Positions 1,794 through 34,979 of a stretch of 35,501 nucleotides of DNA are shown here, piece after piece. Location of the stretch: positions 1-35,501 of the forward strand of contig CAZXZL010000005.1 in NCBI GenBank assembly GCA_964645415.1, given 5' to 3'. Made by a program: the position numbers and the translations under genes. How positions within the stretch are numbered: the first letter of the stretch is position 1; each line of letters opens with the position of its first letter. The notes under the pieces are model-generated. The model saw only the letters and a list, made by a program, of their open reading frames with translations, was not told the DNA's origin and ran no database searches. The stretch comes from an uncultured Methanosarcinales archaeon. Its GTDB lineage: Archaea; Nanobdellota; Nanobdellia; Woesearchaeales; CAZXZL01.

Positions 1794-2831
1794 ATGATAT
1801 TTAAAAAAAATAAATTAAAAAATGAAAACATAGAAAAAATAGCAAGAAACTTCTCTGCTGCTATTGCTAATGATATTAATTATGATCATGATGAATTTAA
1901 AAATTTTATAAGTAATACTGAAAACCTTGAAAGATTTACTAATAAGTATATTGTTGATTTAATTGAAAGCAAGGATGAAAAAAAACTTAATGATTATTTA
2001 GAAAAAACTTCTGAGTTAAATGATTATATTTCTAATACAATAAAGAAAGGAGGAAAAGTAAATGATTTCTTTTATAATCACTTTTATGAATCATTAAAAT
2101 CTAAAGTAAGTCATGAATATAGTAATAAAAAAGATTTTTTTAAAAAAATAGCAAGAGTTTCCTTAGGATTAGGAGATAATAAAAATAAACTTGATATAAT
2201 TTCTAATGATAAAGAAAGTTTAGAAGTAATGGTTGAATCAGCAATTACTGGAGATATGGTTGATGATTCAAAAATCTTTTTTAATAATAAATATAGTCGT
2301 GATTTAAAACATTTAGGTAAGTTAGCAAGAAATAATTCTTTTTATGATTTATCAATGGATTCTTATGAGTATTTAAATAATAGAAAGGAATCTGAAAAAA
2401 CTTTAAAATCTTGTATTAATGAATATTTAAGAAAGAAGAATTCTAATAAATTAAAACAAAAGTCACTTAACTTAGCAGATAGATATTATCAATTATCAAA
2501 AGATTTAGATAATTTATCAAAAGAATCATTTGATTTTTTTGAAGATGTATCAAAAATAGGAGATGATGGAATGAAGTATTTAGATAGTATCTTAGGTGAA
2601 ATGTTTAATGATTCAAACATTGAAACTAAAAGTAAGATAAAAGCAATTCATAAATATGCAGATATTTGTCTAAAAGATAGAGAATATATAGAAAAAAATG
2701 AATATCTCTCAAAAGCAAATAATTGGTTATTAACAGCTAAAAACAATTTAGATGATACTGATAAAAATAAGTACTTTTCAAAACTAAAAAACAAAATTAA
2801 TAATATTAGTACTTATTTTAATTCTAGTTAA
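1794..2831 (+). CDS. Hypothetical K/N/D-rich protein (345 aa), partner gene upstream of family-P member 1
   Basis: A 345-codon ORF in stop-rich AT-rich DNA is unlikely to be spurious. I recognise no motif, TM segment or signal peptide. Confidence 0.7.
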   Translation: MIFKKNKLKNENIEKIARNFSAAIANDINYDHDEFKNFISNTENLERFTNKYIVDLIESKDEKKLNDYLEKTSELNDYISNTIKKGGKVNDFFYNHFYESLKSKVSHEYSNKKDFFKKIARVSLGLGDNKNKLDIISNDKESLEVMVESAITGDMVDDSKIFFNNKYSRDLKHLGKLARNNSFYDLSMDSYEYLNNRKESEKTLKSCINEYLRKKNSNKLKQKSLNLADRYYQLSKDLDNLSKESFDFFEDVSKIGDDGMKYLDSILGEMFNDSNIETKSKIKAIHKYADICLKDREYIEKNEYLSKANNWLLTAKNNLDDTDKNKYFSKLKNKINNISTYFNSS

Positions 2832-2865: not shown

Positions 2866-3576
2866 ATGAAAACTATTGAAAATTATAATGAAATTAAACC
2901 TGCAGGAAATACGAAAGTTGCTAATGAATATAAAAATTTAGATGAATTAAGATCTCATCTTTATGACTTATCTTCTGATTTAGAGAATGAATTAAAAGAT
3001 AAAAAAACAATTTATGATAATAAAAGGATTGAAGCTTTAAGAAAACCATTTAAACTTGAGTTAATGAATATTATTTTAACAGAAGATTATGATTTATCTA
3101 AAAAAGATGATGTTGAAAAACACGTAATTTGTTATAATCAAATACCTAGATTAGACTCAGGTGATAGTTATGATTCTTTATTTGATATTTTAAAAAATGA
3201 TTTAGATAGATATATCAAAGATGATATTAAAGAAAAATATCATTATCTAAAAAGTGATCTAAAAGAGAATTATGATTTAAAGTTAAATGATGATTCTATT
3301 TTTTACTTTCTAAATGTTAAATCTAATGATGTAGAAAAAAAGAGTTATGATAGAAAAGGAGAAGAATTTATTGAAAGATGGGGACTTCCAGTATCAATAA
3401 ATGGAAATAATACTAAATTTGATAGGTTTTATATCGTTGATGAAGGATTTAAAATTATTTATGATAAAAACAATCTACATACATTTAGAGGATATTCAAA
3501 AGAATGTTTAGAGGATTTCATCAAAAATGGAAAAGATTTAAAAATTGATTCTTGTAAATATAATATCAAAAATTAA
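2866..3576 (+). CDS. Family-P paralog 1 (unknown function)
   Basis: It shares with the five other ORFs the N-terminal G-x-(N/D)-T...L-x-E-(I/L)-x-x-(Y/H)-L-x-x-(I/L)-S-x-x-L-E block, the K-R-I-x-x-L-(K/R)-K-P block, and the C-terminal GLPV...FY(I/L)...G.K(I)..D... block. The SD ttaaggtgat precedes the ATG. Confidence 0.8.
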   Translation: MKTIENYNEIKPAGNTKVANEYKNLDELRSHLYDLSSDLENELKDKKTIYDNKRIEALRKPFKLELMNIILTEDYDLSKKDDVEKHVICYNQIPRLDSGDSYDSLFDILKNDLDRYIKDDIKEKYHYLKSDLKENYDLKLNDDSIFYFLNVKSNDVEKKSYDRKGEEFIERWGLPVSINGNNTKFDRFYIVDEGFKIIYDKNNLHTFRGYSKECLEDFIKNGKDLKIDSCKYNIKN

Positions 3577-3590
3577 TTTTTTAGATTAAA

Positions 3591-4391
3591 ATGGAATATA
3601 AAGAAGGAAATTTAGGGGATATTGATACATATTCAAATGATGATTTAAATGAATTATATCAAAGCTTAAAAAAGAATGAATTAGATATTGAAATGATTAG
3701 GAAGAAATTTTATTATACAATGATAAAAGATTCTAAATCATTAGATGATATTGTTCAAAATTATAGTGAAAATGATATAAAAAAAACTGAAAAAAAGTAT
3801 CAGAATATGATTGATTCTTTCAATTATAACCCTTCTTTTAAAAACTATTATGAAGATAATTCCTTTAATTATTTTATAAATAATAAAGGTAAAAATCACT
3901 CTAAAAAATTAAATTATAAAGGTTATAATTATAGAAATAAGTTGTATCTGAAATTTTCTGAAAAAGATATTATTGAAAAGACAGAAGACTATTCTAAATT
4001 CATTGAAAAATTATATCAAAATTTATTTGAAAATGAAGTAATAGATAAAGGTAAAATTACACATCATTTTTTTAATTCTCCTACAAGGTCTTATTGTAAA
4101 AATAAAGACGTTATGATTTTTTATTTTAACTCTGAGAATAAAAATCACTTCCAAGAATTTAATGATATATATAATGAATTAACTAATGATGTTGAACTTA
4201 ATCCAAAAGTTAAATTTAGAGAGATTGGAAGAGATGTAGAAACATCATATAATAATTTAATGTCTATTTGGATGTCAAATAAATATATATCTGAAGAAGA
4301 GAATATTAATTCAAAAGAAGATTTTAGAGATTTTTTTAAAAAGACAATTAATAAATATCGTGAGGTTATCTTAAATAAGAAGTGGGTTTAA
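3591..4391 (+). CDS. Hypothetical K/N-rich protein (266 aa), partner gene upstream of family-P member 2
   Basis: It is a long ORF with no TM segment or signal peptide and no confidently recognised domain. Its stop is 1 nt from the start of the next gene. Confidence 0.7.
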   Translation: MEYKEGNLGDIDTYSNDDLNELYQSLKKNELDIEMIRKKFYYTMIKDSKSLDDIVQNYSENDIKKTEKKYQNMIDSFNYNPSFKNYYEDNSFNYFINNKGKNHSKKLNYKGYNYRNKLYLKFSEKDIIEKTEDYSKFIEKLYQNLFENEVIDKGKITHHFFNSPTRSYCKNKDVMIFYFNSENKNHFQEFNDIYNELTNDVELNPKVKFREIGRDVETSYNNLMSIWMSNKYISEEENINSKEDFRDFFKKTINKYREVILNKKWV

Positions 4392-4392
4392 G

Positions 4393-5124
4393 ATGAAGTT
4401 ATACAAAGATATTTATGGTTTAGAACCTGGTTCAAATACTTTTATCTGTGGTGAATTCGATTCAATAAATATGATTAAAGATTATCTTGATCAAATATCA
4501 TTTAAATTAGAAAATGTATTAGGTAATAACCTTTCTAACTATGATAGAAAAAGAATAAATTTCATGAAAAAACCATTTCATAAAGACTTATATCAAATAA
4601 TTCGTGATGAAAAGATTTATGAAAATGAAGATGAAGTGAGAATAGATAGATATTCAAATATTATTTTAAATCAAGAAAAATATGATGAGTTATTTGAACG
4701 TTTAAACTCATCTTTAGATGAAAAAATTAAAGAAAAAGTTTTTGAAAGATATAATGAAATTAATGATTCAATAAAAAATAATTACTCTTTTAAAATAGAT
4801 GAAGATAATATTTATTATAAATTAAAAACTCATTTAAATAGTAGTTCATATTATCTAAAAGAATCATATTTTGAAGATTATGCATTACCAGTTAATTTAG
4901 ATTCTAATAATTTGAAAAAATTTTATTTAAATCCAAAAGGTAATAAGTATTTACATGATCAATCAGGTTCAATATTATTTAAAAATAAATCAGTTGATGG
5001 TTTAAAGGATTTAATGAAGAATGGAACAAAAATAAAAGATATTTCTTTAAAAAGTAGTATTGTTCCAGAAGTAACTCTTAAATCTAATAAGTATAGTTCT
5101 ATATATGATTATGAATTACTTTAA
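4393..5124 (+). CDS. Family-P paralog 2 (unknown function)
   Basis: The blocks GSNTFICGEFDSINMIKDYLDQISFKLE, YDRKRINFMKKP and LPVNLDSNNLKKFYLNPKGNKYLHDQSGSILFKNKSVDGLKDLMKNGTKI align with paralog 3 at about 50% identity in the C-terminal block. Confidence 0.8.
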   Translation: MKLYKDIYGLEPGSNTFICGEFDSINMIKDYLDQISFKLENVLGNNLSNYDRKRINFMKKPFHKDLYQIIRDEKIYENEDEVRIDRYSNIILNQEKYDELFERLNSSLDEKIKEKVFERYNEINDSIKNNYSFKIDEDNIYYKLKTHLNSSSYYLKESYFEDYALPVNLDSNNLKKFYLNPKGNKYLHDQSGSILFKNKSVDGLKDLMKNGTKIKDISLKSSIVPEVTLKSNKYSSIYDYELL

Positions 5125-5139
5125 TATCTAATTATATTC

Positions 5140-5275
5140 AGATACACCTAAAGAAAACATCTACGTTTTTTTCTAAAGAATGTATCTACGTTTTTTAGCT
5201 AAAGGTTTGCTCTACTCAAAAAAATCTAATTAAAATATCAGGATTTCTTAATATTCTAAATCAGCAGATTTATTC
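5140..5275. repeat. Partial, inverted copy of the dispersed intergenic repeat plus an AAATC-agca-GATTT palindrome
   Basis: The sequence tgtatctacgttttttagctaaagg (5181-5205) is the reverse complement of the cctttagctaaaacgaatacat-type motif seen at 27271/27322/35276. There is a direct repeat atctacgttttt at 5159 and 5184. The 14-mer aaatcagcagattt at 5258-5271 is identical to 15033-15046. Confidence 0.5.
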
Positions 5276-5374
5276 AAATAACATAAAAACATTACAAAAC
5301 AGAAATCCTTTCAATAATGAGTAATAGAAAAAACATATAAATAATATAAATCTTAAAAATAATATTGAGTAAAT

Positions 5375-6607
5375 ATGGTAGAATTAATGTGTCCCGCAGG
5401 GGATATGAAATCATTACAAGCAGCAATTAAAGCAGGTGCCGATTCTGTTTATTTTGGAGTAGGAGATTTAAACATGAGAGCTCGTGCTGCTAAATTTTCA
5501 AATGAAGACCTAAAAAAGATTGTTAAGATATGTAAATCTAATGATGTGAAATCTTATTTAACCTTAAATACAGTAATGTATGATGAAGAGATTGAAGATA
5601 TGAAGAAAATATGTGACAGAGTAAAAAAACTTGGTGTGAGTGCTATAATTGCATCAGATATCTCTGTAATAAAGTATGCAAATTCTATAGACCTTGAAGT
5701 TCATATGTCAACACAAGCAAATATTTCAAATTATGAAGCAGTAAAATTTTATTCAAAATTTGCCGATGTAATTGTATTAGCAAGAGAACTTTCATTAAAT
5801 CAAATAAAAAATATTACTGATAAGATAAAGGAAAATAACTTATGTGGTCCAAATGGTAACTTAATTCAAATTGAAGTTTTTGTTCATGGTGCATTATGTG
5901 TTGCTATTTCAGGAAAATGTTATATGAGCTTGGCTCAATATAATGAATCCGCAAATAGAGGAAAATGTCTTCAAAGTTGTAGAAGAAAATATAAAGTATA
6001 TGACGATGAAACAGGAAAAGAATTGAAAATTGAAAATAACTATGTAATGTCTCCTAGTGATTTATGTACAATAGGTATGATTGATAAACTTATAGAATCA
6101 GGTGTTAATGTTTTTAAAATTGAAGGAAGAGCAAGAGGTCCAAATTATGTTCATACTGTTGTAAGTACCTACAAAAAAGCAATTAACTCTTATTTTAATA
6201 AAAATTATTCTAAATCAAAAATAAAAAAATGGAAAAAAGATTTAAGAAGTGTTTTTAACCGTGGTTTTTGGGAAAATGGTTATTATCAAGGAAAAAAACT
6301 TGGTGAATGGTCTGGAGAATATGGTAGTAAAGCAACTACAAAAAAAGTACAATTAGGAAAAGTACTAAATTATTTTAAAAAACCAAAAATTGCATATATT
6401 GAGATATATTCTAATGAAGTATCTATTGGTGACAAATTATTTGTTACTGGAAATAAAACTGGTTCTGTTTATCAAAAAGTTGAAAGTATATATAATAATG
6501 ATGAAAAACCGATTAAAAAAGCAAATAAAGGAACTAAAGTGACAATCCCTATTAATGAGACTGTAAGAAAGAATGATGAAGTTTATAAAATAATAAAAAA
6601 AGAATGA
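5375..6607 (+). CDS. Peptidase U32 family protein
   Basis: The N-terminus ELMCPAGDMKSLQAAIKAGADSVYFG is typical. EVFVHGALCVAISGKCYMS matches the U32 signature E-x-F-x2-G-[SA]-[LIVM]-C-x4-G-x-C-x-[LIVM]-S. FKIEGRARGPNYV is also present. Confidence 0.9.
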   Translation: MVELMCPAGDMKSLQAAIKAGADSVYFGVGDLNMRARAAKFSNEDLKKIVKICKSNDVKSYLTLNTVMYDEEIEDMKKICDRVKKLGVSAIIASDISVIKYANSIDLEVHMSTQANISNYEAVKFYSKFADVIVLARELSLNQIKNITDKIKENNLCGPNGNLIQIEVFVHGALCVAISGKCYMSLAQYNESANRGKCLQSCRRKYKVYDDETGKELKIENNYVMSPSDLCTIGMIDKLIESGVNVFKIEGRARGPNYVHTVVSTYKKAINSYFNKNYSKSKIKKWKKDLRSVFNRGFWENGYYQGKKLGEWSGEYGSKATTKKVQLGKVLNYFKKPKIAYIEIYSNEVSIGDKLFVTGNKTGSVYQKVESIYNNDEKPIKKANKGTKVTIPINETVRKNDEVYKIIKKE

Positions 6608-6645
6608 TTATTTTAACTACTTAATAATGAGTATTAATCTAAATA

Positions 6646-6653
6646 TTTATATA
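6646..6653 (+). promoter_or_regulatory. TATA-box-like element (aatatTTTATATAta) upstream of family-P paralog 3
   Basis: It matches the shared AA(C/T)ATTTATA motif and lies about 37 nt upstream of ATG 6690. Confidence 0.4.
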
Positions 6654-6689
6654 TAACAAATACCATAGTCAAATAATAAGTTGATAAAC

Positions 6690-7394
6690 ATGGAAATGTT
6701 AAAAGGAAAATACGGATTTTATTATGGTGGTGACACTTTTTTAAGAGGTAAATTTTCTAATTTAAATGAAATTAAAGATTATTTAGATCATGTTTCAACA
6801 GACCTTAAAAAAAGTGACATGATTATTAATTTATCTGAAAATTATGATGATTTGTTTAGTAGCTTAAAAAAACCTCTCTTAAAGAAAATATTTCGTAACT
6901 CTGATAAATTTCTGAATAGTTTCTTTGAAAATTCATTTGATGATGTTGAAACTTTTTTAATCTCAGAAGAAGATTATGATTTACTTTATAAAAACACTAG
7001 TCAAAATTTATATGATAAAGTTTATAATGATATTAAATCCCATTATGATAAAATTAATGATAAACTAAAAAAAGAGTATTCAATGATTTTAAATGATGAT
7101 GAAATTTATTACTCTTTTGATATTAAATTTAATGATTATTCAGATATTTCCTTTAAAGAAAGATTAGGTTTTCCAGTTCTTTTAAACTCTATTGATTATG
7201 ATGAATTTTATCTTATTGAAAAAGGAGATAAAATTGTTCATGATGATAATGGTTCTATCTTATTTAAAGATAAAACAACAAGTGGTTTAGAAGATTTAAT
7301 TAAATTTGGTTCTAAAATAAGTAAGATTAACTCAAAAAAAGATAATCATTTGTCTAAAGAATATGTTGAAGGTATTGATTATATCTCAATCTGA
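6690..7394 (+). CDS. Family-P paralog 3 (unknown function)
   Basis: It contains GGDTFLRGKFSNLNEIKDYLDHVSTDLK, SLKKP and GFPVLLNSIDYDEFYLIEKGDKIVHDDNGSILFKDKTTSGLEDLIKFGSKI. The track starts at TTG 6681. ATG 6690 or 6696 is more likely. Confidence 0.8.
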   Translation: MEMLKGKYGFYYGGDTFLRGKFSNLNEIKDYLDHVSTDLKKSDMIINLSENYDDLFSSLKKPLLKKIFRNSDKFLNSFFENSFDDVETFLISEEDYDLLYKNTSQNLYDKVYNDIKSHYDKINDKLKKEYSMILNDDEIYYSFDIKFNDYSDISFKERLGFPVLLNSIDYDEFYLIEKGDKIVHDDNGSILFKDKTTSGLEDLIKFGSKISKINSKKDNHLSKEYVEGIDYISI

Positions 7395-7454
7395 TTTTAT
7401 TTCTTACCACAATAAATAAATAACATGATTTTTTTAAGAAGTTGGTGTTTAATA

Positions 7455-7898
7455 ATGACTGTTAAAAAAGGAGATAAAGTAAAAGTTGAATATACTGGTA
7501 AATTGGATGATGGTAGTGTCTTTGATTCTTCAAAACATGGTGATCATTCACATCCACTTGAATTCGAAGTAGGTTCTGGTATGGTTATAAAAGGTTTTGA
7601 TGAAGCTGTTATTGGAATGAAAGAAGGAGAAGAAAAAGAGTTTTCTGTAGAGCCAGAAGAAGCTTATGGTGAGAGAAATCCTGAATTAATTAAAAAAGTT
7701 CCAAGAGAACATCTTCCTGATGATCAAGAACCAGAAGTTGGTATGAATTTAATGATTGAAACTCCTGAAGGTCAAAAATTTCCTTCTAAAATTGTTGAGA
7801 TGGACGAAGAAAATTTAACTGTTGATCTTAATCATCCACTTGCTGGAAAAAATCTTAACTTTGAAATCAAAGTTGTTGATATTGAAAGTGAAGATTAA
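7455..7898 (+). CDS. FKBP-type peptidyl-prolyl cis-trans isomerase (short archaeal/SlyD-like, with IF insert)
   Basis: The motifs are KGDKVKVEYTGKLDDGSVFDSS, FEVGSGMVIKGFDEAVIGMKEGEEKEF and DLNHPLAGKNLNFEIKVVDI. ATG 7455 follows ggtg, whereas the track start at 7425 adds an unlikely leader. Confidence 0.9.
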   Translation: MTVKKGDKVKVEYTGKLDDGSVFDSSKHGDHSHPLEFEVGSGMVIKGFDEAVIGMKEGEEKEFSVEPEEAYGERNPELIKKVPREHLPDDQEPEVGMNLMIETPEGQKFPSKIVEMDEENLTVDLNHPLAGKNLNFEIKVVDIESED

Positions 7899-7924
7899 TT
7901 TTTTCTTTTTTCTTTTTTTATTTT
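7899..7924. terminator. Oligo-T tract between convergent genes
   Basis: The tract ttttttcttttttctttttttatttta follows the FKBP stop directly and abuts the stop of the minus-strand gene at 7923. Confidence 0.45.
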
Positions 7925-8981
7925 ATGTTAATGAAAAGAACTTTTTTGTAATTTCTCTATAACTTTTATTACTAATTAAATTATTAGCTATCTTAAAATC
8001 ATTTTCATCATCAACATCAAAACCAAATTCAGGTGGTGTTCTTGAAATACTAAAAGAAACTTTATTATCTAATAGTTTATTTTGAACTAATTCTTCTAAA
8101 TTAGATATATCTATTGAATAATTAATATTTCCTTTTAAAATAATATTACCTAATAATAACCTTCTTAGAAAACTTGATTTTAATAAAGAAAATGTTAATA
8201 ACTCTAATAAATTTGAAGGATAATTTTCTTTTATTTTGTTATCATCTTGAATAATTTTACAAATTTTTTCATAATTTTTACTATCATTAAATACTCTTTT
8301 CATAGAACTTAGTTCATCAAATTTTCTTTCTAACTCGTTTATATTATTATAAACATTTTTATTGATTATTACTGTATTGCCAAAAGCAAGCTTTGGATTA
8401 CTTCTTTTATATTTTGAATTATTATCTTTGAAATTAATTCCAAACTTCTTTTGTTTTTTTATATTTTTATCTTTAAAATATCTATTATAAAAAAGGTTCA
8501 TTTCATTTAAATCAGTCATTCCAAAAATAATATCTTTATTGTAATTTTTCTTTATAGATTTATTATAAAATTCATCAATATCACTAGAATTAATACTTGG
8601 TATATCTCCAGTAAATATAATAGTTCTCTTTTCATAATTATTTGAATATACTTCATTTATTGATTGTTTTAGATTATTTGATAATGAATTTCCTTTCTGT
8701 TCTAAAATATTTACATTATAATCTAGATTTTTTAACTTGTTTTTATCACCTATAACAAAGATATTATTTTCATCAATAATTTCAGAATTAACTATTGACT
8801 CAAGAGTATTTTCTAATATTGTTTTATCATTATTAAGATATCGAGATAATTTGTTATCACTATATAAAAATGATGTTTCATATTTTTTATTCATCTTTAA
8901 TTTATCTCTAATCTCTTCTTTTTTATATTCATCCTTATTTTCTCCAGCTAAAACAATTGAATATATCTTATTACTTTGCAT
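7923..8981 (-). CDS. Hypothetical protein with a possible MobA-like nucleotidyltransferase (GT-A-like) N-terminal fold
   Basis: YSIVLAGENKDE resembles the (I/V)-(I/L)-L-A-G-G loop but lacks the second Gly. IIFTGDIPSINSSDIDEF resembles the gD-x-P-l acidic motif of the NTP_transf_3 family. This is weak, by-eye evidence only. Confidence 0.35.
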   Translation of the reverse strand: MQSNKIYSIVLAGENKDEYKKEEIRDKLKMNKKYETSFLYSDNKLSRYLNNDKTILENTLESIVNSEIIDENNIFVIGDKNKLKNLDYNVNILEQKGNSLSNNLKQSINEVYSNNYEKRTIIFTGDIPSINSSDIDEFYNKSIKKNYNKDIIFGMTDLNEMNLFYNRYFKDKNIKKQKKFGINFKDNNSKYKRSNPKLAFGNTVIINKNVYNNINELERKFDELSSMKRVFNDSKNYEKICKIIQDDNKIKENYPSNLLELLTFSLLKSSFLRRLLLGNIILKGNINYSIDISNLEELVQNKLLDNKVSFSISRTPPEFGFDVDDENDFKIANNLISNKSYREITKKFFSLT

Positions 8982-9120
8982 TATTTAAATAAAAATATTT
9001 TATTATATAACTTTTTTCAAATTTTTTTAGTTATTGTATTTTCTAATTTACTATTTATTAAAAATAACTAATCTCAAAAATAATTAAATTTATGACTATA
9101 AAATAATTAAAATAATAACA

Positions 9121-9128
9121 TTTATATA
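9121..9128 (+). promoter_or_regulatory. TATA-box-like element (aacaTTTATATAtt) upstream of the family-P tandem array
   Basis: It matches the shared motif and lies 31 nt upstream of the 9159 start. Confidence 0.4.
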
Positions 9129-9158
9129 TTATTAAAATAAGTTTATCACATATATAAG

Positions 9159-9827
9159 GTGATTAAGCTGAAAAAAATTAAAGAAAAGATAAATCCTGTT
9201 AATAATGGTTCTACTTTTATTTCTGGTATTTACAATGATTTAAATGAATTCTCTTCATATTTGAATGATATCTCTTCTAAAATAGAAGATAAAAATAATG
9301 TTAAATATCCTAATTATAACAAAAAAAGAGTAAGTAAATTAAAAAAACCTTCATTAAATAATATTATTAATTATTCAAAAAATGAAGAAAATATTGATTC
9401 GTTAGAAGAAATTTTAGATGAAAAAAAGTCTGATGAGTTTATGAGTAATCTTAGAAAAAGAGTTAAAGAGGAATTTAACTTGATTTCTGAAATTATTAAA
9501 AAAGATTACTTAATTTCCTTAAATCAGGATAATTTTTATGCATCAGTTGATATTATATATAATGATTTATATTTTGAAAATATTCGATCTATTGAAAATT
9601 ATGGTCTTTTATTAGATTTTAAAAGTAGTGATAATATTGATAAACTTATACTTTTAGAAAATGGGAATAAAAAAGTTTACAAAGATAATTATTCAATTGT
9701 TTTTAAAAATAAAACTGATTTAGGTTTAATTGATTTAATGGAAAAAGGTATTTGGATTGAAGATGAAACTTCAGAAGAAGATAATAATTCAAAGTATAGA
9801 CTTAAAAAAGATTATTCTTTAAGGTAG
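9159..9827 (+). CDS. Family-P paralog 4 (unknown function)
   Basis: It contains NNGSTFISGIYNDLNEFSSYLNDISSKIE, YNKKRVSKLKKP and LILLENGNKKVYKDNYSIVFKNKTDLGLIDLMEKGIWI. The start is uncertain because GTG 9159 lies inside an aaggtgat SD-like string. Confidence 0.75.
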   Translation: MIKLKKIKEKINPVNNGSTFISGIYNDLNEFSSYLNDISSKIEDKNNVKYPNYNKKRVSKLKKPSLNNIINYSKNEENIDSLEEILDEKKSDEFMSNLRKRVKEEFNLISEIIKKDYLISLNQDNFYASVDIIYNDLYFENIRSIENYGLLLDFKSSDNIDKLILLENGNKKVYKDNYSIVFKNKTDLGLIDLMEKGIWIEDETSEEDNNSKYRLKKDYSLR

Positions 9828-9832
9828 ATAGA

Positions 9833-10402
9833 ATGGAAGAAACAGTTAAGTTGTTTGAAAAAAAAAGTAACGGATTTTTAGATTTAACAATTAAGTCAGA
9901 TAATTTAGAAACATTAATATCAAAACTTAATGAGTATTCTGATGAGATAAAAAATAATTCTAGCTTATCATCTGAATTTGATAAAAAGAAGGTTAAAACC
10001 TTAAAAAAATTCAAATCTTTAATGGAATTTAATTATTCAATGGCTTACATGAGGGCCAAAGATCTTGATGATAACATAAAGAATGAATTTTCTTTATCAA
10101 AACCATATGGTTATTATTATTCAATTTTTGCAGGAGAATCTAAATTAAAAAGATCAAATGATTTTATAATAAATGAATATATTGGTGCTTGTATTGATGT
10201 TAAAGAAAATTCAGAATTTGATAAGATATTTGTTACTGATAAAAATTATAAGATTATTGAAGAGGATATTACATTAAATAAGTTTATTTTAAAAAATAAA
10301 TCAAGTAAAGCTGTGAATAATCTATTAAAAAGAGGTATTGAATTTGTAAACTCATGTTATAATGAAGATTATGAATTAAATAAAGACTTTTCCTATTTTT
10401 AA
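9833..10402 (+). CDS. Family-P paralog 5 (divergent, 189 aa)
   Basis: It contains FLDLTIKSDNLETLISKLNEYSDEIK, FDKKKVKTLKKF and FVTDKNYKIIEEDITLNKFILKNKSSKAVNNLLKRGIEF. It starts 5 nt after the stop of paralog 4. Confidence 0.7.
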   Translation: MEETVKLFEKKSNGFLDLTIKSDNLETLISKLNEYSDEIKNNSSLSSEFDKKKVKTLKKFKSLMEFNYSMAYMRAKDLDDNIKNEFSLSKPYGYYYSIFAGESKLKRSNDFIINEYIGACIDVKENSEFDKIFVTDKNYKIIEEDITLNKFILKNKSSKAVNNLLKRGIEFVNSCYNEDYELNKDFSYF

Positions 10403-10404
10403 AA

Positions 10405-11016
10405 ATGAGATTAAAAAATAACTATTGTAATTTGGAAGATATCTCTGAGATCTTTGTTTCAGGAATATTCAAAGATTTTAGTGAGATAAATAATTTTCTT
10501 GAAAGTTATGTGAAAAAAATAGAATCAAAAGATAAAAGTAATTATTTAAATGAAGATGATAATTTTAAATTATTAAAAAAAACTTCTTTTTCAATAGATG
10601 ACTTAGTTTCTTTAAATTATAGTTTTAATTTAATTGATGATGATTTAATTAATAATTATAATTTATCAAAAGATATTTCAAATTTATATTACTCTTTTTA
10701 TTTTTACAAAAATAATGATTCCCATTTAGTTGGTACAAAATATGATGAAAGAATAGGTATGAAAATTATCGTTGGTAAGGGTTACATAAATGAATTTTAT
10801 ATTGATAATTATCGAAACTTTATTCTTGATAAAAATGGTAAACAACTTGTTTTTAAAAACAATTCAAAAGAAGCTTTAGAAGATATTATTAACTTTGGAT
10901 TTGATGTTAAAAATAAAGTATCTTTTTTGGGTGATATTATTCCAAAAGAAAAATATAATTATTATGAAGATTACTTTATTCTTAATTGTAAAAGAGAAAA
11001 TATTAAACTAATCTAA
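10405..11016 (+). CDS. Family-P paralog 6 (divergent, 203 aa)
   Basis: It contains IFVSGIFKDFSEINNFLESYVKKIE, FKLLKKTS and FYIDNYRNFILDKNGKQLVFKNNSKEALEDIINFGFDV. It starts 2 nt after the stop of paralog 5. Confidence 0.7.
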   Translation: MRLKNNYCNLEDISEIFVSGIFKDFSEINNFLESYVKKIESKDKSNYLNEDDNFKLLKKTSFSIDDLVSLNYSFNLIDDDLINNYNLSKDISNLYYSFYFYKNNDSHLVGTKYDERIGMKIIVGKGYINEFYIDNYRNFILDKNGKQLVFKNNSKEALEDIINFGFDVKNKVSFLGDIIPKEKYNYYEDYFILNCKRENIKLI

Positions 11017-11106: not shown

Positions 11107-11805
11107 ATGAAATATTTAATAATGTCTGATTATCATGGAAGATGTAGTTCACTTGAAGATGTTATAAAATCAGAATCACCAGATAAAATAATTTCTTTAG
11201 GTGATTATCAAACTTCTGAATGTATTAATAAATATTATCAACTAGTCTCTAAATATAATATTAATTCTATTGATGTCTTTGGAAATCATGATTATGTTAT
11301 TTATGAAGGTAATAATATATATTCAAAAACATTTAAACAATTTGGTTCGACTATTAAAGAGCTAATTGATGAATATAGATTTGATAAAACTGCACAAAAA
11401 AACCTTAATCATTTAATTGAAGAATCAGGTATGAAAAAAGAATTTAAAATCAATGATATGAATGTTTTGTGTGTTCATGGTGGTTTAGATGGAGCATTAT
11501 ATGGTTTTCCTCACTGTCCAGAGAGTTTAAGACCTATTTGGTATAGGATAAGATCAATTAATGATTATAGAAAAAATTTTGAAAAAATGAAAGAAAATTA
11601 TTATCATATCATGATAAGAGGACATGATCATAGAAGAAGTTTTAGTTATTTTAGGAGTGATAGTGTTTTATCATTTTCAATAAATGAAGATAGATCATAT
11701 AATATAAATCAAGGTAAAATGAGAATTATAAACCCTGGTGATTTTTTCAGTGGAAAATATGCTATCCTTGAAGATGAAAACTTAAGTTTTAAAAGTTATA
11801 TATAA
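11107..11805 (+). CDS. Calcineurin-like metallophosphoesterase
   Basis: The ordered motifs are SDYHG (D-x-H), LGDY (GD), GNHD, VHGG and RGHDH. Confidence 0.8.
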   Translation: MKYLIMSDYHGRCSSLEDVIKSESPDKIISLGDYQTSECINKYYQLVSKYNINSIDVFGNHDYVIYEGNNIYSKTFKQFGSTIKELIDEYRFDKTAQKNLNHLIEESGMKKEFKINDMNVLCVHGGLDGALYGFPHCPESLRPIWYRIRSINDYRKNFEKMKENYYHIMIRGHDHRRSFSYFRSDSVLSFSINEDRSYNINQGKMRIINPGDFFSGKYAILEDENLSFKSYI

Positions 11806-16739: not shown

Positions 16740-16801
16740 AAACAAATATTACTACTTAATCATAATAAATTTAATGTCTTGATTATAAAAAGGTGATTCA
16801 A

Positions 16802-17782
16802 ATGGAAAAGTATAAAATTTCTGAAAAAGGAAAAAAATACTTAAAGAAAGCTGCAGCATTCGGTGTTGGAGCTGCTTTAATTGCAAGTAGTTATGTTGGT
16901 GGAGTTTTAGCTAATGATGATATTGAAAAACAAGTTAATGAAGAATTAAACAATGAAACAAAAATTACTCAAGAAGTAGATCATGATTTTGATTTCAAGT
17001 TTGATTATAATAGAGTATCTCATGATGACTTTAGAGAGATTTATGATACAACAGGAGAAGGAGTTGATTTTAAATATGATTCATCTAATAAATTTGAAAT
17101 TGATACTAACATCGGCTTTAAAGATAGTGGATTAATTATTGGTGGTAATTATAGTAATAAATCTTTTTCAGGAGATATGATTTATGGAGAAGATAAAAAT
17201 GTTGGTGATTCAAGTAAAAAAGCTTCAATAATACTTGGAAGGTTAGGATATAATATAGATGAAGATACAATTATTCATACAGGTTATGGAAGTATTAGTG
17301 GAGAAAGAATAGCTAATTTTATCGATGATGATAGAGATTATGGTACTGATTTTAATGATTCTATAGTTGAAATTGGATTAAATCATAGTGGTAAATCTGA
17401 TGAGAATAAAATCAACCTTGAATTTATCTTAGATCGTGCAATAAATGATAATAATACAGGAATTAGAGGAAATGTTGATATAGAATCTAATGGAAATAGG
17501 TTTGGAGTTAATTTAGATAATTCTGCAAAATCTGAATACTTAGTTGACCGTTTAATTGATTTTTATGGATTAAGATCAATAAATGTTAATGATGAAAGTA
17601 GTATAAAAAATTCAGAAATAGGATTAAGTTACCAAAATTCATTAGAAGAAGGAATTGATAACATGATAGGATTGATTGGAAGTTTAGAAACAGAAGAAGG
17701 ACTAAATATTGATTTAAGATTAAAAAGGTCTCTAAATTCTGATACAAGTGGATTAAATATTAGTTTTGAATATGATTATTAA
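16802..17782 (+). CDS. Secreted beta-strand-rich (porin-like) protein, family B member 1
   Basis: There is an N-terminal signal/anchor, KKAAAFGVGAALIASSYVGGVLAND. About 260 aa then show alternating hydrophobic/polar strands (FEIDTNIGF, GLIIGGNYS, ASIILGRLGYNI, SIVEIGLNH, KINLEFILD, NRFGVNLDN, SEIGLSYQN, LNIDLRLKR). It ends in GLNISFEYDY, with aromatic or hydrophobic residues at positions -1, -3, -5, -7 and -9. It is homologous to the C-terminal domain of the 19216 gene. The track start 16793 is a GTG inside the SD. Confidence 0.75.
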   Translation: MEKYKISEKGKKYLKKAAAFGVGAALIASSYVGGVLANDDIEKQVNEELNNETKITQEVDHDFDFKFDYNRVSHDDFREIYDTTGEGVDFKYDSSNKFEIDTNIGFKDSGLIIGGNYSNKSFSGDMIYGEDKNVGDSSKKASIILGRLGYNIDEDTIIHTGYGSISGERIANFIDDDRDYGTDFNDSIVEIGLNHSGKSDENKINLEFILDRAINDNNTGIRGNVDIESNGNRFGVNLDNSAKSEYLVDRLIDFYGLRSINVNDESSIKNSEIGLSYQNSLEEGIDNMIGLIGSLETEEGLNIDLRLKRSLNSDTSGLNISFEYDY

Positions 17783-19215: not shown

Positions 19216-20898
19216 ATGTATTTAAAAAATAAAGTTAATAAAATTAAAGAAAAAGGTAAAGATTATATGAAGAAAGCAGGTTATGGTATTGGTGCTTTAG
19301 CTATAGCAGCTTCATTAATGACTGGTAGTGCTGATGCTAGCAACATCAATGATGATTATCAAAATGAAGTTTTAAATGAGATGAATAATCAAAGTGTTCT
19401 TGAGTTAAGTTATGATAGTTTAGATTTAGAAGATAGAGATAATCTTGAAGACGAAATTAATAATGAAAGTAATAGCTATTCTTATAAAGAATCATTAATT
19501 TTAGATGATTTAAGATCAGATAATCTTTCTGCTATTGAACAATATGAAAGTATTGATAAATGGTTAGATGATATGTATCGTGGAAATTTAAAACCAGCAC
19601 ATTATGAACAAGTTATTGGTAATGAAACATGGATAAAACAATTATCAATTATTGATGGTGATGATGTTAGTTATGATGAAATGAAAGATACTCTTCAAAG
19701 TAAATACGATAGAGCATTAAGAAGAGAAAGAAGAGAGAGAGATTTAGATCGAGATGAAAGAGATAGTCCTGAAGTAACAAAATGGAGAGATCTAGATACA
19801 GACGAAATTTTAGAAAGATTAGATGAACTAGATACTGATGAAGATTTAGAAGAAATTGTAGATGATGAAAAAATCGAAAAACCTACACCAGATAAAGTAT
19901 ATGAACCTGACTTAGATGAAGAAAAAGAAGATTATAAAGTAGATGATACATATGAACCTACAGAAGATCCTGATGATGAATATGTTGTTGATACTACTGA
20001 TGATGAAATTGAAGATGATAATGATTATGATCCAATCGAAGAAGATCCTAGTGATTTAGAAGAAATTCTTGATGAAGAAAAAGAAGTAGAAAGAAAATCT
20101 GATATTAATAGAAATTATGTGAGTTTTGAATATGGTCAAAATCAAGGTGCAGGAACTAGCGATATTTATGATACAACTGGTGATGGTGTAACTTTTGAGT
20201 ATGATCAATCAAGTGAAAAAAATATTGAAGTTGGATTTGAAATTCCTGATACTGATTTTAATGTTAGTGGATCATATTTTAGTCGAGATTTAGAAGGAGA
20301 TATGGTTTATGGAATTGATACTGATAATGAGATGGAAGTAGGAGATGCGACTAAAAATCAAACATTACTTTCTCTTGGTGTTGGATATGATTTTGATGAA
20401 AACTTAAATACATCAATTGGAGTAAATAAATATGATGAAGAGAAAATAGCAAACTTTGAAGATGATGATAGAGATTATACATTTGAAGACTCAGATATCA
20501 TCCCAGAAGTAAATGTTAGACAAATTATAGATATTAATGACTCAGATGAACTTGCTTTAGAAGGAACTTTAGATTATTCAACCTCTGATTCAGAATTAGG
20601 TTTTAGATTAGGAGGAGATTATTATTTTGGAGATAATAGAGTTGGATTAGATTTTGATAACACTAAAGTATCAGATAGATTAAATGAAAGAAGTATGAGT
20701 ATTAGTGCTGATAGAACATTTAATGATGATTATAATGTTGGTGTTAGTTATAATAAGTCTTTAGAAGATGATGTTGGAGATAGTATTGGAATTAATGCAA
20801 GTTACACATATGAGGATTTAATGTTAAAATTTGGTGTAGATAGAGGTATTGATGATGATGAACTTGAATCTATACTTGGACTCGAATTAAGTTTTTAA
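19216..20898 (+). CDS. Secreted protein: signal peptide, N-terminal domain, highly acidic linker and C-terminal porin-like beta-rich domain (family B member 2)
   Basis: The signal KKAGYGIGALAIAASLMTGSADASN has an A-x-A-like site. The D/E-rich linker spans about aa 170-295. The C-terminal approx. 260 aa align with the 16802 gene (IYDTTGDGVTFEYD, GDMVYG, EKIANFEDDDRDY, GVSYNKSLEDD). It ends in ESILGLELSF, with a terminal Phe. Confidence 0.8.
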   Translation: MYLKNKVNKIKEKGKDYMKKAGYGIGALAIAASLMTGSADASNINDDYQNEVLNEMNNQSVLELSYDSLDLEDRDNLEDEINNESNSYSYKESLILDDLRSDNLSAIEQYESIDKWLDDMYRGNLKPAHYEQVIGNETWIKQLSIIDGDDVSYDEMKDTLQSKYDRALRRERRERDLDRDERDSPEVTKWRDLDTDEILERLDELDTDEDLEEIVDDEKIEKPTPDKVYEPDLDEEKEDYKVDDTYEPTEDPDDEYVVDTTDDEIEDDNDYDPIEEDPSDLEEILDEEKEVERKSDINRNYVSFEYGQNQGAGTSDIYDTTGDGVTFEYDQSSEKNIEVGFEIPDTDFNVSGSYFSRDLEGDMVYGIDTDNEMEVGDATKNQTLLSLGVGYDFDENLNTSIGVNKYDEEKIANFEDDDRDYTFEDSDIIPEVNVRQIIDINDSDELALEGTLDYSTSDSELGFRLGGDYYFGDNRVGLDFDNTKVSDRLNERSMSISADRTFNDDYNVGVSYNKSLEDDVGDSIGINASYTYEDLMLKFGVDRGIDDDELESILGLELSF

Positions 20899-22475: not shown

Positions 22476-23894
22476 ATGTCTTTAAAAAAGATAATAGATG
22501 ATACTGGTGTAAAAAAAGCTTATATTAGAAATGGTGATATTAAAAAAGAAAATAATATTTTTGATAAAATAAAAAATCTAAACCCATTTAATGATCAACC
22601 TGATATAATATATTCTAATGATCCTATTGAATCAAAAAATTCTATTAAAAGATATTATAATGATAATGAAGTTCACTATAAAAAAAAATCTACTCTTGAA
22701 GGTTTAATAGAATATAATGAATTATCATATGAAAATAAATCAGATAATAAATATGGTTATAAATTAAAAACTCAATTAGATTTACTTAAAAAGTATTATG
22801 AGAACTCAGTATCTGACATTGATTTATCAAACCATACTGATGTACTAAAGAGATTTTATCATCTTAATACATGGAAATCAAGAGTAGAATATATAAACCT
22901 TTTAAAAGATTCAATTCCTGAAAAATTAATTTCTGATATGTATGTGATTATTATGAGTAATAACTATGTTAAGAAAAAGATATTAGATAATGAAAGCATT
23001 TATTCAAATTTAGAAAATATAAAAGATTCAATTAATTTTTATCAACATGAATTAAAAAATTACAATACTTTAGAGATTGTTAATTATTTTAAAAATCGAA
23101 TAAAACATAATTCTAATGATTTAAATATTGATGACTTAGAACTTGAATATAAAAAAGGTTATAATTGGAGTAATTACTTTAAAGAGATAGATAATCTTGA
23201 AATTGATTTTAATGAAAAAAGATTACTTTTTTCAATTTTAGGAGATAATTCATCATTAGAGGGATATTATAATGGAATTAAAAAAAAAGTTGACCAAATA
23301 ATTTCTAAAGAAGGTTCTTTAGAGGAATTAATAGAAGAATTTGAATGTCTAAAGGAAAAAGAAGACATGTCCAATCTTATGGAAGATTACTTAAAAGATT
23401 TAATTAGTTATCATATAGATGGTTTTGATAATGAATATTCTGAAAATAAAGTTAAAAAATATTTTAGTAGTCTAAAAAATAATTTTAAAAATAAGTTAAA
23501 AAGTCTTTCTAATGTTAAAAAAATTAACCCTATAAAAAAACTAAAATCAATATATGATAATAAAAATAAAAGTAATTTATCAAAAAAATATAAATCTACT
23601 AACTCTATTGAAAATAATAATGAAAAAAATAACTTATCTAATAATTTATCAAGTGATAAAAGTAATATTCTAAATGAAGAAATTAAAAAAGATAATTATG
23701 TTTCAGATAAAATTTCTAAAGAGAAAAGTACTTCTTATAATTATGAATCTGAAAATATTTCATATAATGATGATAAATATAATAGTATTAATACAAATCA
23801 TACATATGAAGACTTAATGTTGAGATTTGGTATAGATAGAGGTATTGATTATGATGAACTTGAATCTATACTTGAACTTGAATTAAGTTTTTAA
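22476..23894 (+). CDS. Hypothetical K/N-rich protein (472 aa) with a grafted family-B C-terminal 30-aa strand module
   Basis: It has no signal peptide and the body is unlike family B. The last 30 aa, TYEDLMLRFGIDRGIDYDELESILELELSF, are near-identical to the C-terminus of the 19216 gene, and the nucleotide repeat continues past the stop. Confidence 0.7.
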   Translation: MSLKKIIDDTGVKKAYIRNGDIKKENNIFDKIKNLNPFNDQPDIIYSNDPIESKNSIKRYYNDNEVHYKKKSTLEGLIEYNELSYENKSDNKYGYKLKTQLDLLKKYYENSVSDIDLSNHTDVLKRFYHLNTWKSRVEYINLLKDSIPEKLISDMYVIIMSNNYVKKKILDNESIYSNLENIKDSINFYQHELKNYNTLEIVNYFKNRIKHNSNDLNIDDLELEYKKGYNWSNYFKEIDNLEIDFNEKRLLFSILGDNSSLEGYYNGIKKKVDQIISKEGSLEELIEEFECLKEKEDMSNLMEDYLKDLISYHIDGFDNEYSENKVKKYFSSLKNNFKNKLKSLSNVKKINPIKKLKSIYDNKNKSNLSKKYKSTNSIENNNEKNNLSNNLSSDKSNILNEEIKKDNYVSDKISKEKSTSYNYESENISYNDDKYNSINTNHTYEDLMLRFGIDRGIDYDELESILELELSF

Positions 23895-28834: not shown

Positions 28835-28906
28835 AGCAGGTGGGGGGACTCGAACCCCCGATCGTTGGGTTGCAGCCAACTGCCTTAGCCGCTTGGCCAC
28901 ACCTGC
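28835..28906 (-). tRNA. tRNA-Cys: tRNA-Cys (anticodon GCA)
   Basis: This is a GC-rich island. The reverse complement GCAGGTG-TG-GCCA-AGCGGCTAA-GGCA-G-GTTGG-CTGCAAC-CCAAC-GATC-GGGGG-TTCGAGT-CCCCC-CACCTGC folds as a cloverleaf. It has a 7-bp acceptor stem, a 5-bp anticodon stem, the loop CU-GCA-AC, a GTTCGAGT T-loop and a U discriminator. CCA is not encoded. Confidence 0.9.
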
Positions 28907-33887: not shown

Positions 33888-34979
33888 TTACATGTGTAAT
33901 TCGTATCTTAAAATAGCTCCTACTTTAAAGTTTTTAAATCTCATACCCTCTTTAGTTCTATCAGAAACAATTTGAACTTCAGTACTATAATCTTTTGACT
34001 TTTTGTGGATCTCATCAATAAATTCATCATCTAATGATTCTAGTACAAGTATTTTTTCACAAGCACCCATTTCAAGTGCTTTTTTAACTTCTTTTTTACC
34101 ATATGTAACATAATTAGGATTTTTAGCAAGTTTTCTAAAAAATTCTTCCATATGAACTCTTTCTTTAACTAACTCTTGATTTTCTAATATATCATCACTT
34201 AAATTAACTAATTCTTGTAAACCATCTTCACCACAATTTGATAGATCTTTTTTAGCAATTACTTTTTCTTTAATTTCTGTTGGTAAGTAATCTCCTTCAA
34301 AAAATTTATATTTTGTTGGACCAGGACCGCCTAATAAAACTCCTTCAATTTCTTTTTTACCTAAAAAAGCTTTTTTTACAGATTCTGCTACTTTTTTAAA
34401 GAAATTTTTAATTAAATTTTGTCTAATCCTTGCAAATCTTTGTGCGGATTGTCCTCCTGCTTTTGTTTTTCCTGGAACAGGAGAGAATAATGTTTTTAAT
34501 AATTTTATACTTTTTCCATGTAATTCACCAATTGCTGCTTCTCTTCTATCAAGTACTATTAATGCAAAAGTACTATCTGCTGTTAGCATTTCTTTAAGTG
34601 GTTCTAAAACAAATTCTTTATCACATCTATAAATTTTAGTATTTAGTGGAATTGGTGGAACAACACTCCAAACTTTTACATCAGATTTTCCTTCTCTCTC
34701 AGCAACATTTCCTGAAAAAATAGCAAGACCATTTTCAGGAGTTTTTTCCATCATTTTTAATTGTTGTGTCATCTTTTCAAGAGCATCAGAAACATTTTTT
34801 CTTGTAGTAGTTGATTTAATGTTTGTTGCTGTTCCTTTCTCTTGAAATAAGTGTTCAATAATCCTATGTAATTTATAACCTGCAGGAATATAAACAGAAA
34901 CTAATTCAGTATTTCTACCTCTATATTCATCAAGTTCCTTAATAGTCCTTTTAAGTCGAAACTTTTGATAATCATCCAT
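33888..34979 (-). CDS. prf1: Peptide chain release factor aRF1
   Basis: The motifs are GTATNIKS (NIKS), AGGQSAQRFARIR (GGQ), N-terminal RGRNTELVSVYIP and C-terminal GAILRY. At 363 aa it is shorter than typical aRF1 but has all three domain landmarks. Confidence 0.95.
   Translation of the reverse strand: MDDYQKFRLKRTIKELDEYRGRNTELVSVYIPAGYKLHRIIEHLFQEKGTATNIKSTTTRKNVSDALEKMTQQLKMMEKTPENGLAIFSGNVAEREGKSDVKVWSVVPPIPLNTKIYRCDKEFVLEPLKEMLTADSTFALIVLDRREAAIGELHGKSIKLLKTLFSPVPGKTKAGGQSAQRFARIRQNLIKNFFKKVAESVKKAFLGKKEIEGVLLGGPGPTKYKFFEGDYLPTEIKEKVIAKKDLSNCGEDGLQELVNLSDDILENQELVKERVHMEEFFRKLAKNPNYVTYGKKEVKKALEMGACEKILVLESLDDEFIDEIHKKSKDYSTEVQIVSDRTKEGMRFKNFKVGAILRYELHM

Follow-up and report, generated by a model that had tools for sequence, protein, structure and literature searches.

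The window analysed here, a 35,501-nt stretch of contig CAZXZL010000005.1 (assembly GCA_964645415.1), carries within about 8 kb six related genes whose products (F1 to F6, Table 1) constitute a genuine, lineage-restricted orphan family of soluble, mostly acidic alpha/beta proteins. The family diversified long ago, through local duplications, into six or more orthologous groups, it occurs only within a small clade of Woesearchaeota-type DPANN archaea, and it is under purifying selection yet fast-evolving. It is new as a sequence family and, to judge by PDB and BFVD, as a fold; the newness applies only to the level of protein family and fold compared with these two collections, and not to function.

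The presence of six homologous open reading frames (ORFs), all on the + strand, had been proposed in a first-pass annotation of this DNA and was confirmed with the ORF list, BLASTP, hidden Markov models (HMMs), hhalign and shuffled sequences. In BLASTP with composition-based statistics F1 to F4 matched one another with E values of 1e-13 to 1e-30 (5e-23 for F1 and F2), with the exception of the F1/F4 pair (approximately 5e-4), and F6 matched F2 at 1e-5; F5 gave no BLASTP match to the other five proteins. Leave-one-out HMMs recovered F1 to F4 at 1e-25 to 1e-35 and F6 at 2e-10. With the filters switched off, F5 scored 24.6 bits against the family HMM in two co-linear segments covering both halves of the protein. 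The next-best score among the 111 ORFs of the window was 6.5 bits, and no seventh copy of the family was found among them. The best of 500 shuffles of F5 reached 3.4 bits, and the maximum for shuffled F6 was 2.3 bits in comparison to 47.9 bits for the real protein. A profile of three F5 orthologues was aligned by hhalign to the 13 other members over 177 co-linear columns with a probability of 98.7% and an E value of 1.8e-16.

The GC content of the window, 19-26% throughout and extreme for an archaeon, together with the large HMMER bias terms (about 30-40 bits), could suggest that the similarity is an artefact of K/N/D-rich composition or that some of the ORFs are not genes. The probability of this explanation is negligible given the composition-corrected E values down to 1e-30 and the low scores of the shuffled sequences (3.4 bits or less) and of the remaining window ORFs (6.5 bits or less). 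The orthologues P0008, P0011 and P0014, which come from genomes of 37-40% GC, match the family as strongly as the AT-rich members do, and therefore the similarity is not an artefact of AT-rich composition. The ratio of nonsynonymous to synonymous substitution rates (dN/dS) below 0.3 also speaks against it, as does the length of the frames: where, as calculated from the base composition of the window, approximately 10% of random codons would be stops, a frame that stays open for 189 codons or more is very improbable.

The identity between the paralogs, estimated by eye at 25-50% in the first-pass annotation, was found to be 17-35% when measured. Four sequence blocks were described there as common to all six proteins. 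F5 and F6, however, are short forms in which approximately 40-60 residues are missing from the stretch that separates the basic from the central block, and F6 is also devoid of the K-R...L-K-K-P (basic) block. F1 is preceded by GGTGAT, a Shine-Dalgarno-like motif. For F3 the ORF list gives a TTG start at 6681, and the L001 orthologue begins with MEMLKG, which favours the start listed in Table 1.

Table 1. Family members and other features of the window
Feature	Position	Strand	Product	Remarks
1794	1794-2831	+	345 aa	lineage-specific protein upstream of F1, not a family member
F1	2866-3576	+	236 aa	
3591	3591-4391	+	266 aa	lineage-specific protein between F1 and F2, not a family member
F2	4393-5124	+	243 aa	most central member, modelled by AlphaFold2
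U32-family peptidase	5375-6607			
F3	6690-7394	+	234 aa	between the U32 peptidase and FKBP genes
7923(-)	7923-8981	-	352 aa	weak CofC/MobA-like nucleotidyltransferase similarity (Pfam E 1.8e-5)
F4	9159-9827	+	222 aa	GTG start; first gene of the F4-F5-F6 tricistron
F5	9833-10402	+	189 aa	short, most divergent member
F6	10405-11016	+	203 aa	short form without the basic block
Metallophos gene	11107-11805			
Second family, member 1	16793-17782		329 aa	
Second family, member 2	19216-20898		560 aa	D/E-rich
Second family, member 3	22476-23894		472 aa	
tRNA-Cys (GCA)	28835-28906	-		only RNA gene found in the window
aRF1	33888-34979	-		archaeal marker

The presence of aRF1 in the window, of NMD3 in the upstream part of the parent metagenomic contig (ena:ERZ27266011:k141_839883, approximately 75 kb) and of metagenome-assembled genomes (MAGs) labelled Candidatus Woesearchaeota as the closest named relatives identifies the host as a DPANN-type archaeon; its genome is extremely AT-rich. 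The related contigs have a GC content of 21-26%, and the more distant genomes bearing the family (contigs L006-L009, L013, L014 and L018) of 37-40%. Contigs L001, L015 and L019 were treated as one low-GC genome, an assumption based on their shared sample and equal GC content, and contigs L021 and L016, as well as L005 and L017, represent the genome GCA_048623255.1.

A profile search of 1.84 billion representative proteins gave 16 hits, comprising the 6 window proteins, 9 true relatives and one spurious match, the repetitive 1032-aa protein P0017, which was rejected. The 15 true members come from a few Woesearchaeota-type MAGs; few of them were recovered in word-indexed homologue searches. The genomic context was obtained for most of the relatives. 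Three low-GC genomes, including that of the window, hold the family in the same region: F1, F3, F4, F5 and the start of F6 are present in the L001/L015/L019 genome, and F1, F4, F5 and F6 in GCA_048623255.1, which also encodes a seventh type, P0009, elsewhere. The genomes of 37-40% GC contain dispersed single genes of the F4 or F6 type. A scan of GTDB genomes anchored on the U32 peptidase gene revealed three more distant MAGs labelled Woesearchaeota, and none of these has a family member less than 10 kb from this gene. No member was found on viral contigs (by a scan) or in phages and plasmids (by tblastn), and a metagenome scan gave the organism encoding P0008 again and no other.

The subfamilies differ in their distribution. 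The F4 subfamily is the most widespread, with orthologues P0010 in L015, L005_3841, P0008 (40% GC) and P0011 (37% GC). The orthologues of F5 (P0016 and P0018) are each 40% identical to it, and those of F6 are 40% (L005_5176) and 31% (P0014) identical. The F3 orthologue occupies the same position in L001 (2706-3419; 49% identity by BLASTP or 50% in the multiple alignment), and F3 was not found between the U32 and FKBP genes in L005 and L021. F1 has an orthologue in L001 (L001_191, 47% identity) and a frameshifted copy in L021 (45-51% identity over two fragments). No F2 orthologue was found in the sampled relatives and no remnant of it in L001 or L021. 

The frameshifted F1 copy (L021:4261-4991; GCA_048623255.1, JBMCBV010000009.1) is split into ORFs of 64 aa and 169 aa near the conserved L-K-K-P motif, and may reflect a pseudogene, an error in sequencing or assembly, or programmed frameshifting. 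The seventh subfamily, represented by P0009 (245 aa, 38-40% identical to F1), is encoded directly upstream of a Metallophos gene (L016:1214-2713 and L017:2357-3856); the window orthologue of the latter, 53% identical, sits after F6 instead. The F4-type gene for P0008 is preceded by a gene encoding a 268-aa protein (L006:8378-9184 and L018:381-1187) with approximately ten tandem repeats of about 10 residues, xxFSGxxSxx, which have a pentapeptide-repeat-like look; the protein is unrelated to the window protein 3591.

The suggestion that the copies are old, maintained duplicates and not the products of a recent amplification is upheld by a neighbour-joining tree, in which every window paralog but F2 pairs with foreign orthologues. 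The groups F1, F3, F4, F5 and F6 each comprise the window protein and proteins of other genomes, and therefore the duplications are older than the split of these genomes; F2 stands alone as the sister of F3. At the DNA level the repeat between copies is limited to the conserved C-terminal block (74-75% identity), and neither flanking repeats nor signatures of mobile elements were detected next to the copies. There has also been gene turnover, F2 together with 3591 occurring only in the window genome and F3 missing from GCA_048623255.1, with no remnants in either case.

The F proteins of the window and its relatives are 33-50% identical, in comparison to 55-85% for the products of neighbouring genes. 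Among the interleaved genes the values are 78-80% for the U32 peptidase, 83-85% for FKBP, 79% for p158, 66% for p107, 61% for a methyltransferase, 59% for a CDP-alcohol phosphatidyltransferase and 55% for the CofC-like protein. Since dS is near saturation in the pairs of window and relative, the Nei-Gojobori estimates were restricted to the closest genome pair, L015/L005. The dN/dS ratios obtained were 0.29 for F4 and 0.20 for F5, compared with 0.10 for U32 and 0.07 for FKBP, with the reservation that dS is probably underestimated in DNA of such biased composition. The dN of the family is approximately 2-6 times that of the surrounding housekeeping genes.

The family proteins are 184-247 aa long and most of them have an isoelectric point (pI) of 4.5-6.5. 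Family scans and hydropathy bear out the original impression that they have no signal peptide, transmembrane segment or recognisable catalytic domain; no transmembrane segment was detected, the maximum 19-residue Kyte-Doolittle value being 0.86. Assignment to a well-characterised domain found no support in Pfam, NCBIfam, PHROG, PADLOC or PDB sequences. No member scored above threshold in Pfam-A, NCBIfam or PHROGs: the best matches to curated families reached 11-16 bits against cut-offs of 22-640, and no family was common to more than 2 of the 16 members. No consistent match was obtained with PADLOC, the single match of F5 to a SAVED-HNH effector model (E 0.005, 13.7 bits) being at noise level. 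Sequence and profile searches of PDB with the family and with the neighbouring proteins 1794 and 3591 gave no match.

The AlphaFold2 model of F2, built on a 16-sequence alignment, is compact and of high predicted quality (mean predicted local distance difference test, pLDDT, 88.5; predicted TM score 0.85; five concordant models). It starts with a beta-hairpin at residues 2-22 (strands 2-8 and 16-22), followed by helices 25-46, 49-59 and 63-73 and by a variable low-confidence insert at about 74-93, which the short forms lack. Next come a long helix (94-121), a short one, a five-stranded antiparallel sheet (140-149, 156-168, 176-179, 185-189 and 192-196), a 16-residue helix (201-216), a flexible linker and a C-terminal strand (240-242), the C-terminal K-Y-x4-D-Y-x3 tail docking as an additional strand. 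Positions conserved in at least 13 of 17 sequences include, in F2 numbering, L32, Y131, E161, G164, P166, F177, D206, G211, K233, Y234, D239 and Y240; Y131, E161 and D206 are each kept in 16 of the 17 and Y234 in all. The K-Y-x4-D-Y motif ends three residues before the C-terminus, the exceptions being the window F6, with a 10-residue extension beyond it, and the F1 group, which stops just past K-Y.

When the F2 model was compared by Foldseek with 350,542 PDB chains and with BFVD, no match was found at E of 0.001 or less, the best values being 0.72 and 0.2, respectively. The best PDB hit was the human COMMD ring 8p0w_A, and 8f2r_B and the bacterial COMMD-like 9q6a_A were also among the top 17, with alignments of 167-182 columns each. 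This raises the question of whether the proteins are a divergent COMMD-like family that expanded into a heteromeric set and forms rings by sheet augmentation. The two groups are alike in size (about 190-250 aa) and in the order of their elements, with helices in the N-terminal part and then a beta-sheet and one helix. Archaea are known to have COMMD-like proteins (PMC13392464), and in eukaryotes COMMD was duplicated into paralogous subunits of one hetero-oligomer, which is what is proposed here for the window family. However, the Foldseek statistics were poor (E 0.72-4.9, probability 0.01-0.04, TM score 0.12-0.13, root-mean-square deviation above 22 A), hhalign of the family profile with human COMMD1 gave a probability of 0.1% (the COMMD1 query was verified against PDB 8f2u/8p0w), and no member matched the Pfam COMM domain at E up to 10. 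The topology differs as well: the COMM domain is a three-stranded antiparallel sheet followed by an extended helix, and the HN domain is all-alpha (PMC13392464), whereas the F2 model opens with a beta-hairpin and has five strands and a tail that docks. Moreover, COMMD-like genes are normally single-copy in prokaryotes (PMC13392464). COMMD identity was rejected on the grounds of Foldseek E and TM values, Pfam COMM, hhalign and topology, and the COMMD-like explanation as a whole is highly improbable.

The arrangement of the genes bears on how the family may work. F5 begins 5 nt past the F4 stop codon and F6 begins 2 nt past that of F5. The F4-F5-F6 order is kept in the three low-GC genomes, with gaps of 33 and 3 nt in L005 and of 33 and 22 nt in L015, despite the F proteins being only 33-41% identical across these genomes. 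In the surroundings of the three genes the Metallophos gene has moved, an HD gene has been inserted and F3 and F2 are present or absent. Dandekar et al. in 1998 are said to have established conserved gene order at such divergence as a predictor of physical interaction. Mainly because this order and tight spacing survive both sequence divergence and reshuffling of the surroundings, the paralogs are tentatively seen as non-catalytic subunits or binding modules which bind one another or a shared partner, although the chance of this being right is put clearly below even. Two further hints support it: F5 is basic (pI 8.5) in the two relatives, complementing the acidic F4 and F6, and the tail motif is missing in F1, whose orthologues alone are without the C-terminal D-Y strand; all the other groups have it, at a constant distance from the C-terminal end. 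The absence of any catalytic motif or cofactor-binding signature from the curated family scans was also counted in its favour.

If the paralogs do act as such binding modules, F4, F5 and F6 would be made from one tightly spaced transcript and would probably form a hetero-oligomer, and F1 to F3 would be of the same kind, either as additional specialised subunits or as alternative adaptors. The conserved Y131, E161, D206, G211, Y234 and D239 and the tail of fixed length would then serve subunit packing or recognition of the shared partner. The more specific proposal of a new fold common to all six proteins and of a paralog-diversified hetero-oligomer in a genome-reduced Woesearchaeote, with an F4-F5-F6 core and F1 to F3 as exchangeable subunits, is unlikely as it stands. 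The diversified adaptor family mentioned as one option in the first-pass annotation is possible and comes near to the binding-module interpretation. A functional analogy may be drawn with the alpha and beta subunits of prefoldin and the proteasome, with Sm/Lsm proteins and with CCT, in which old paralogs of the same fold also stand side by side; likewise, some window paralogs appear to be co-transcribed (F4-F5-F6) and each has stable orthologues. In contrast to these systems, to which it bears no homology, the window family changes in sequence much faster, and its assembly is a proposal.

Several observations weigh against the binding-module interpretation. The operon linkage is not universal, as the genomes of 37-40% GC hold F4- and F6-type genes as dispersed singletons, and the gene order shared by three fairly close genomes may simply have been inherited. 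In addition, paralogs that are only about 20% identical have in common a Glu that is invariant and an Asp and two Tyr that are nearly so, which would suit an active site or a ligand-binding site equally well.

This last point leads to the main rival, a small-molecule-binding or enzymatic family in which the helices and the curved antiparallel sheet would enclose a pocket lined with Y131, E161, D206 and Y234, and the ligand or substrate would vary from paralog to paralog. In one version the proteins would be cytosolic lipid or isoprenoid carriers in an organism that relies on host lipids. It is consistent with the fact that the few positions which all groups conserve (the four residues just named) are polar or aromatic, and with an enrichment of the weak Foldseek matches in beta-barrels and half-barrels that bind hydrophobic ligands (a Plasmodium lipocalin, VioE, acetoacetate decarboxylase and an Orpheovirus lipocalin). 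Lipid or isoprenoid genes also lie a few genes from family members in four contexts: a CDP-alcohol phosphatidyltransferase gene in the window, L005 and L021, a CTP_transf_1-like gene in L006, a polyprenyl synthase gene in L014 and a PMT_2 gene in L013. Like the lipocalin, LolA-VioE and helix-grip binders, several of which are among these matches, the F2 protein is soluble with an antiparallel sheet packed by helices; however, all the fold matches are at noise level (E above 3, TM score of 0.2 or less) and no sequence match to an enzyme or ligand-binding family exists. Membrane and lipid genes adjoin nearly everything in a small genome, and orthologues that are 33-50% identical next to enzymes at 55-85% would be evolving unusually fast for enzymes. 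A ligand-binding or enzymatic role is considered rather unlikely, if worth keeping in view.

The layout of the genes had also been compared to immunity or antitoxin arrays. In this case each paralog would neutralise another toxin, and 1794 and 3591 would be the toxins of F1 and F2. The family does resemble polymorphic-toxin immunity arrays and type II antitoxins in that its proteins are small, soluble, acidic, fast-evolving, lineage-specific and encoded in tandem, with some presence/absence variation. Moreover, only 1 nt separates the 3591 stop codon from the F2 start, and two relatives have neither 3591 nor F2, nor any remnant of them, at the corresponding site, which is how a cassette of two genes would behave. 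In contrast to those systems, the family has no recognisable toxin partner or conserved pairing. Scans against Pfam, NCBIfam, PHROGs and PADLOC revealed no toxin domain in 1794, 3591 or 7923(-); for 1794 and 3591 there is also no nuclease, secretion or other domain of any kind and no PDB sequence match.

The neighbours do not behave as dedicated partners either. 1794 and 3591 are unrelated to each other and to the family, 1794 giving a negative score with the family HMM; the AlphaFold2 model of 3591, obtained from a two-sequence alignment, is unreliable (pLDDT 52.6). The orthologues of 1794 are 48.5% (L019) and 51% (L021) identical to it. Both the window and L021 have a 1794-like gene a short distance upstream of F1; the third low-GC genome has its 1794-like gene on L019 and its F1 on L001, two contigs that are assumed to adjoin. 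In the two relatives an S26-like peptidase gene follows the 1794-like gene. The only homologue of 3591, P0020 (32% identity), is encoded upstream of the 1794-like gene in L019 and not beside an F gene, and none is present in L021. The gene order is therefore 3591-like, 1794-like, peptidase in L019 and 1794-like, peptidase, F1, without 3591, in L021, which does not agree with the idea of paired copies: as the order and presence of 3591 and 1794 vary in the relatives, the one-to-one partner layout is a feature of the window genome only.

F3 to F6 have housekeeping neighbours and no candidate toxin beside them, and the orthologues of each subfamily are stable and keep their places, flanked by housekeeping genes. 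No DNA-binding antitoxin domain, such as type II antitoxins have, and no immunity or antitoxin family was matched above threshold in Pfam or PADLOC, the sole hint being a YezG-like Pfam match (E 0.061) in 1 of 16 members; family members were also not found on phage, plasmid or viral contigs. With no toxin-like partner, no PADLOC or immunity match and conserved housekeeping surroundings, an immunity or antitoxin array is an improbable explanation.

Other features of the region are of separate interest. The 7923(-) gene is transcribed divergently from the F4-F5-F6 operon, and this arrangement is kept in L005 and L021, the protein being 55% identical. The U32-family peptidase gene lies one to four genes from a family member in the three low-GC genomes and on the 38% GC contig L014; its proximity may be inherited synteny rather than a functional link. 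The second lineage-specific family of the window comprises proteins of 329, 560 and 472 aa. Over its last 36 residues the 472-aa protein shares 78% identity with the C-terminus of the D/E-rich 560-aa protein, and the 329-aa protein has, judged by look alone, a seemingly similar beta-rich C-terminal region. A hydrophobic signal-like N-terminal segment is present in the 560-aa and 329-aa proteins and absent from the 472-aa one.

DPANN genomes are tiny, and a large share of what they encode nevertheless lacks annotation. Although orphan families occur commonly in them, a conserved paralog set with a confident, unmatched predicted fold stands out, five to seven paralogs of one orphan family having been kept for a long time in a conserved region of approximately 15 kb. 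Should the proteins turn out to be neither a heteromeric assembly nor carriers of host compounds, they would amount to one further family of hypothetical proteins. If either of these proposals is true, the family would represent a lineage-specific cellular function in an episymbiont-type archaeon, together with a new fold. If the hetero-oligomer is real, it would exemplify in a prokaryote the duplication-driven heteromer complexity that is usual in the eukaryotic COMMD, Sm and CCT systems.

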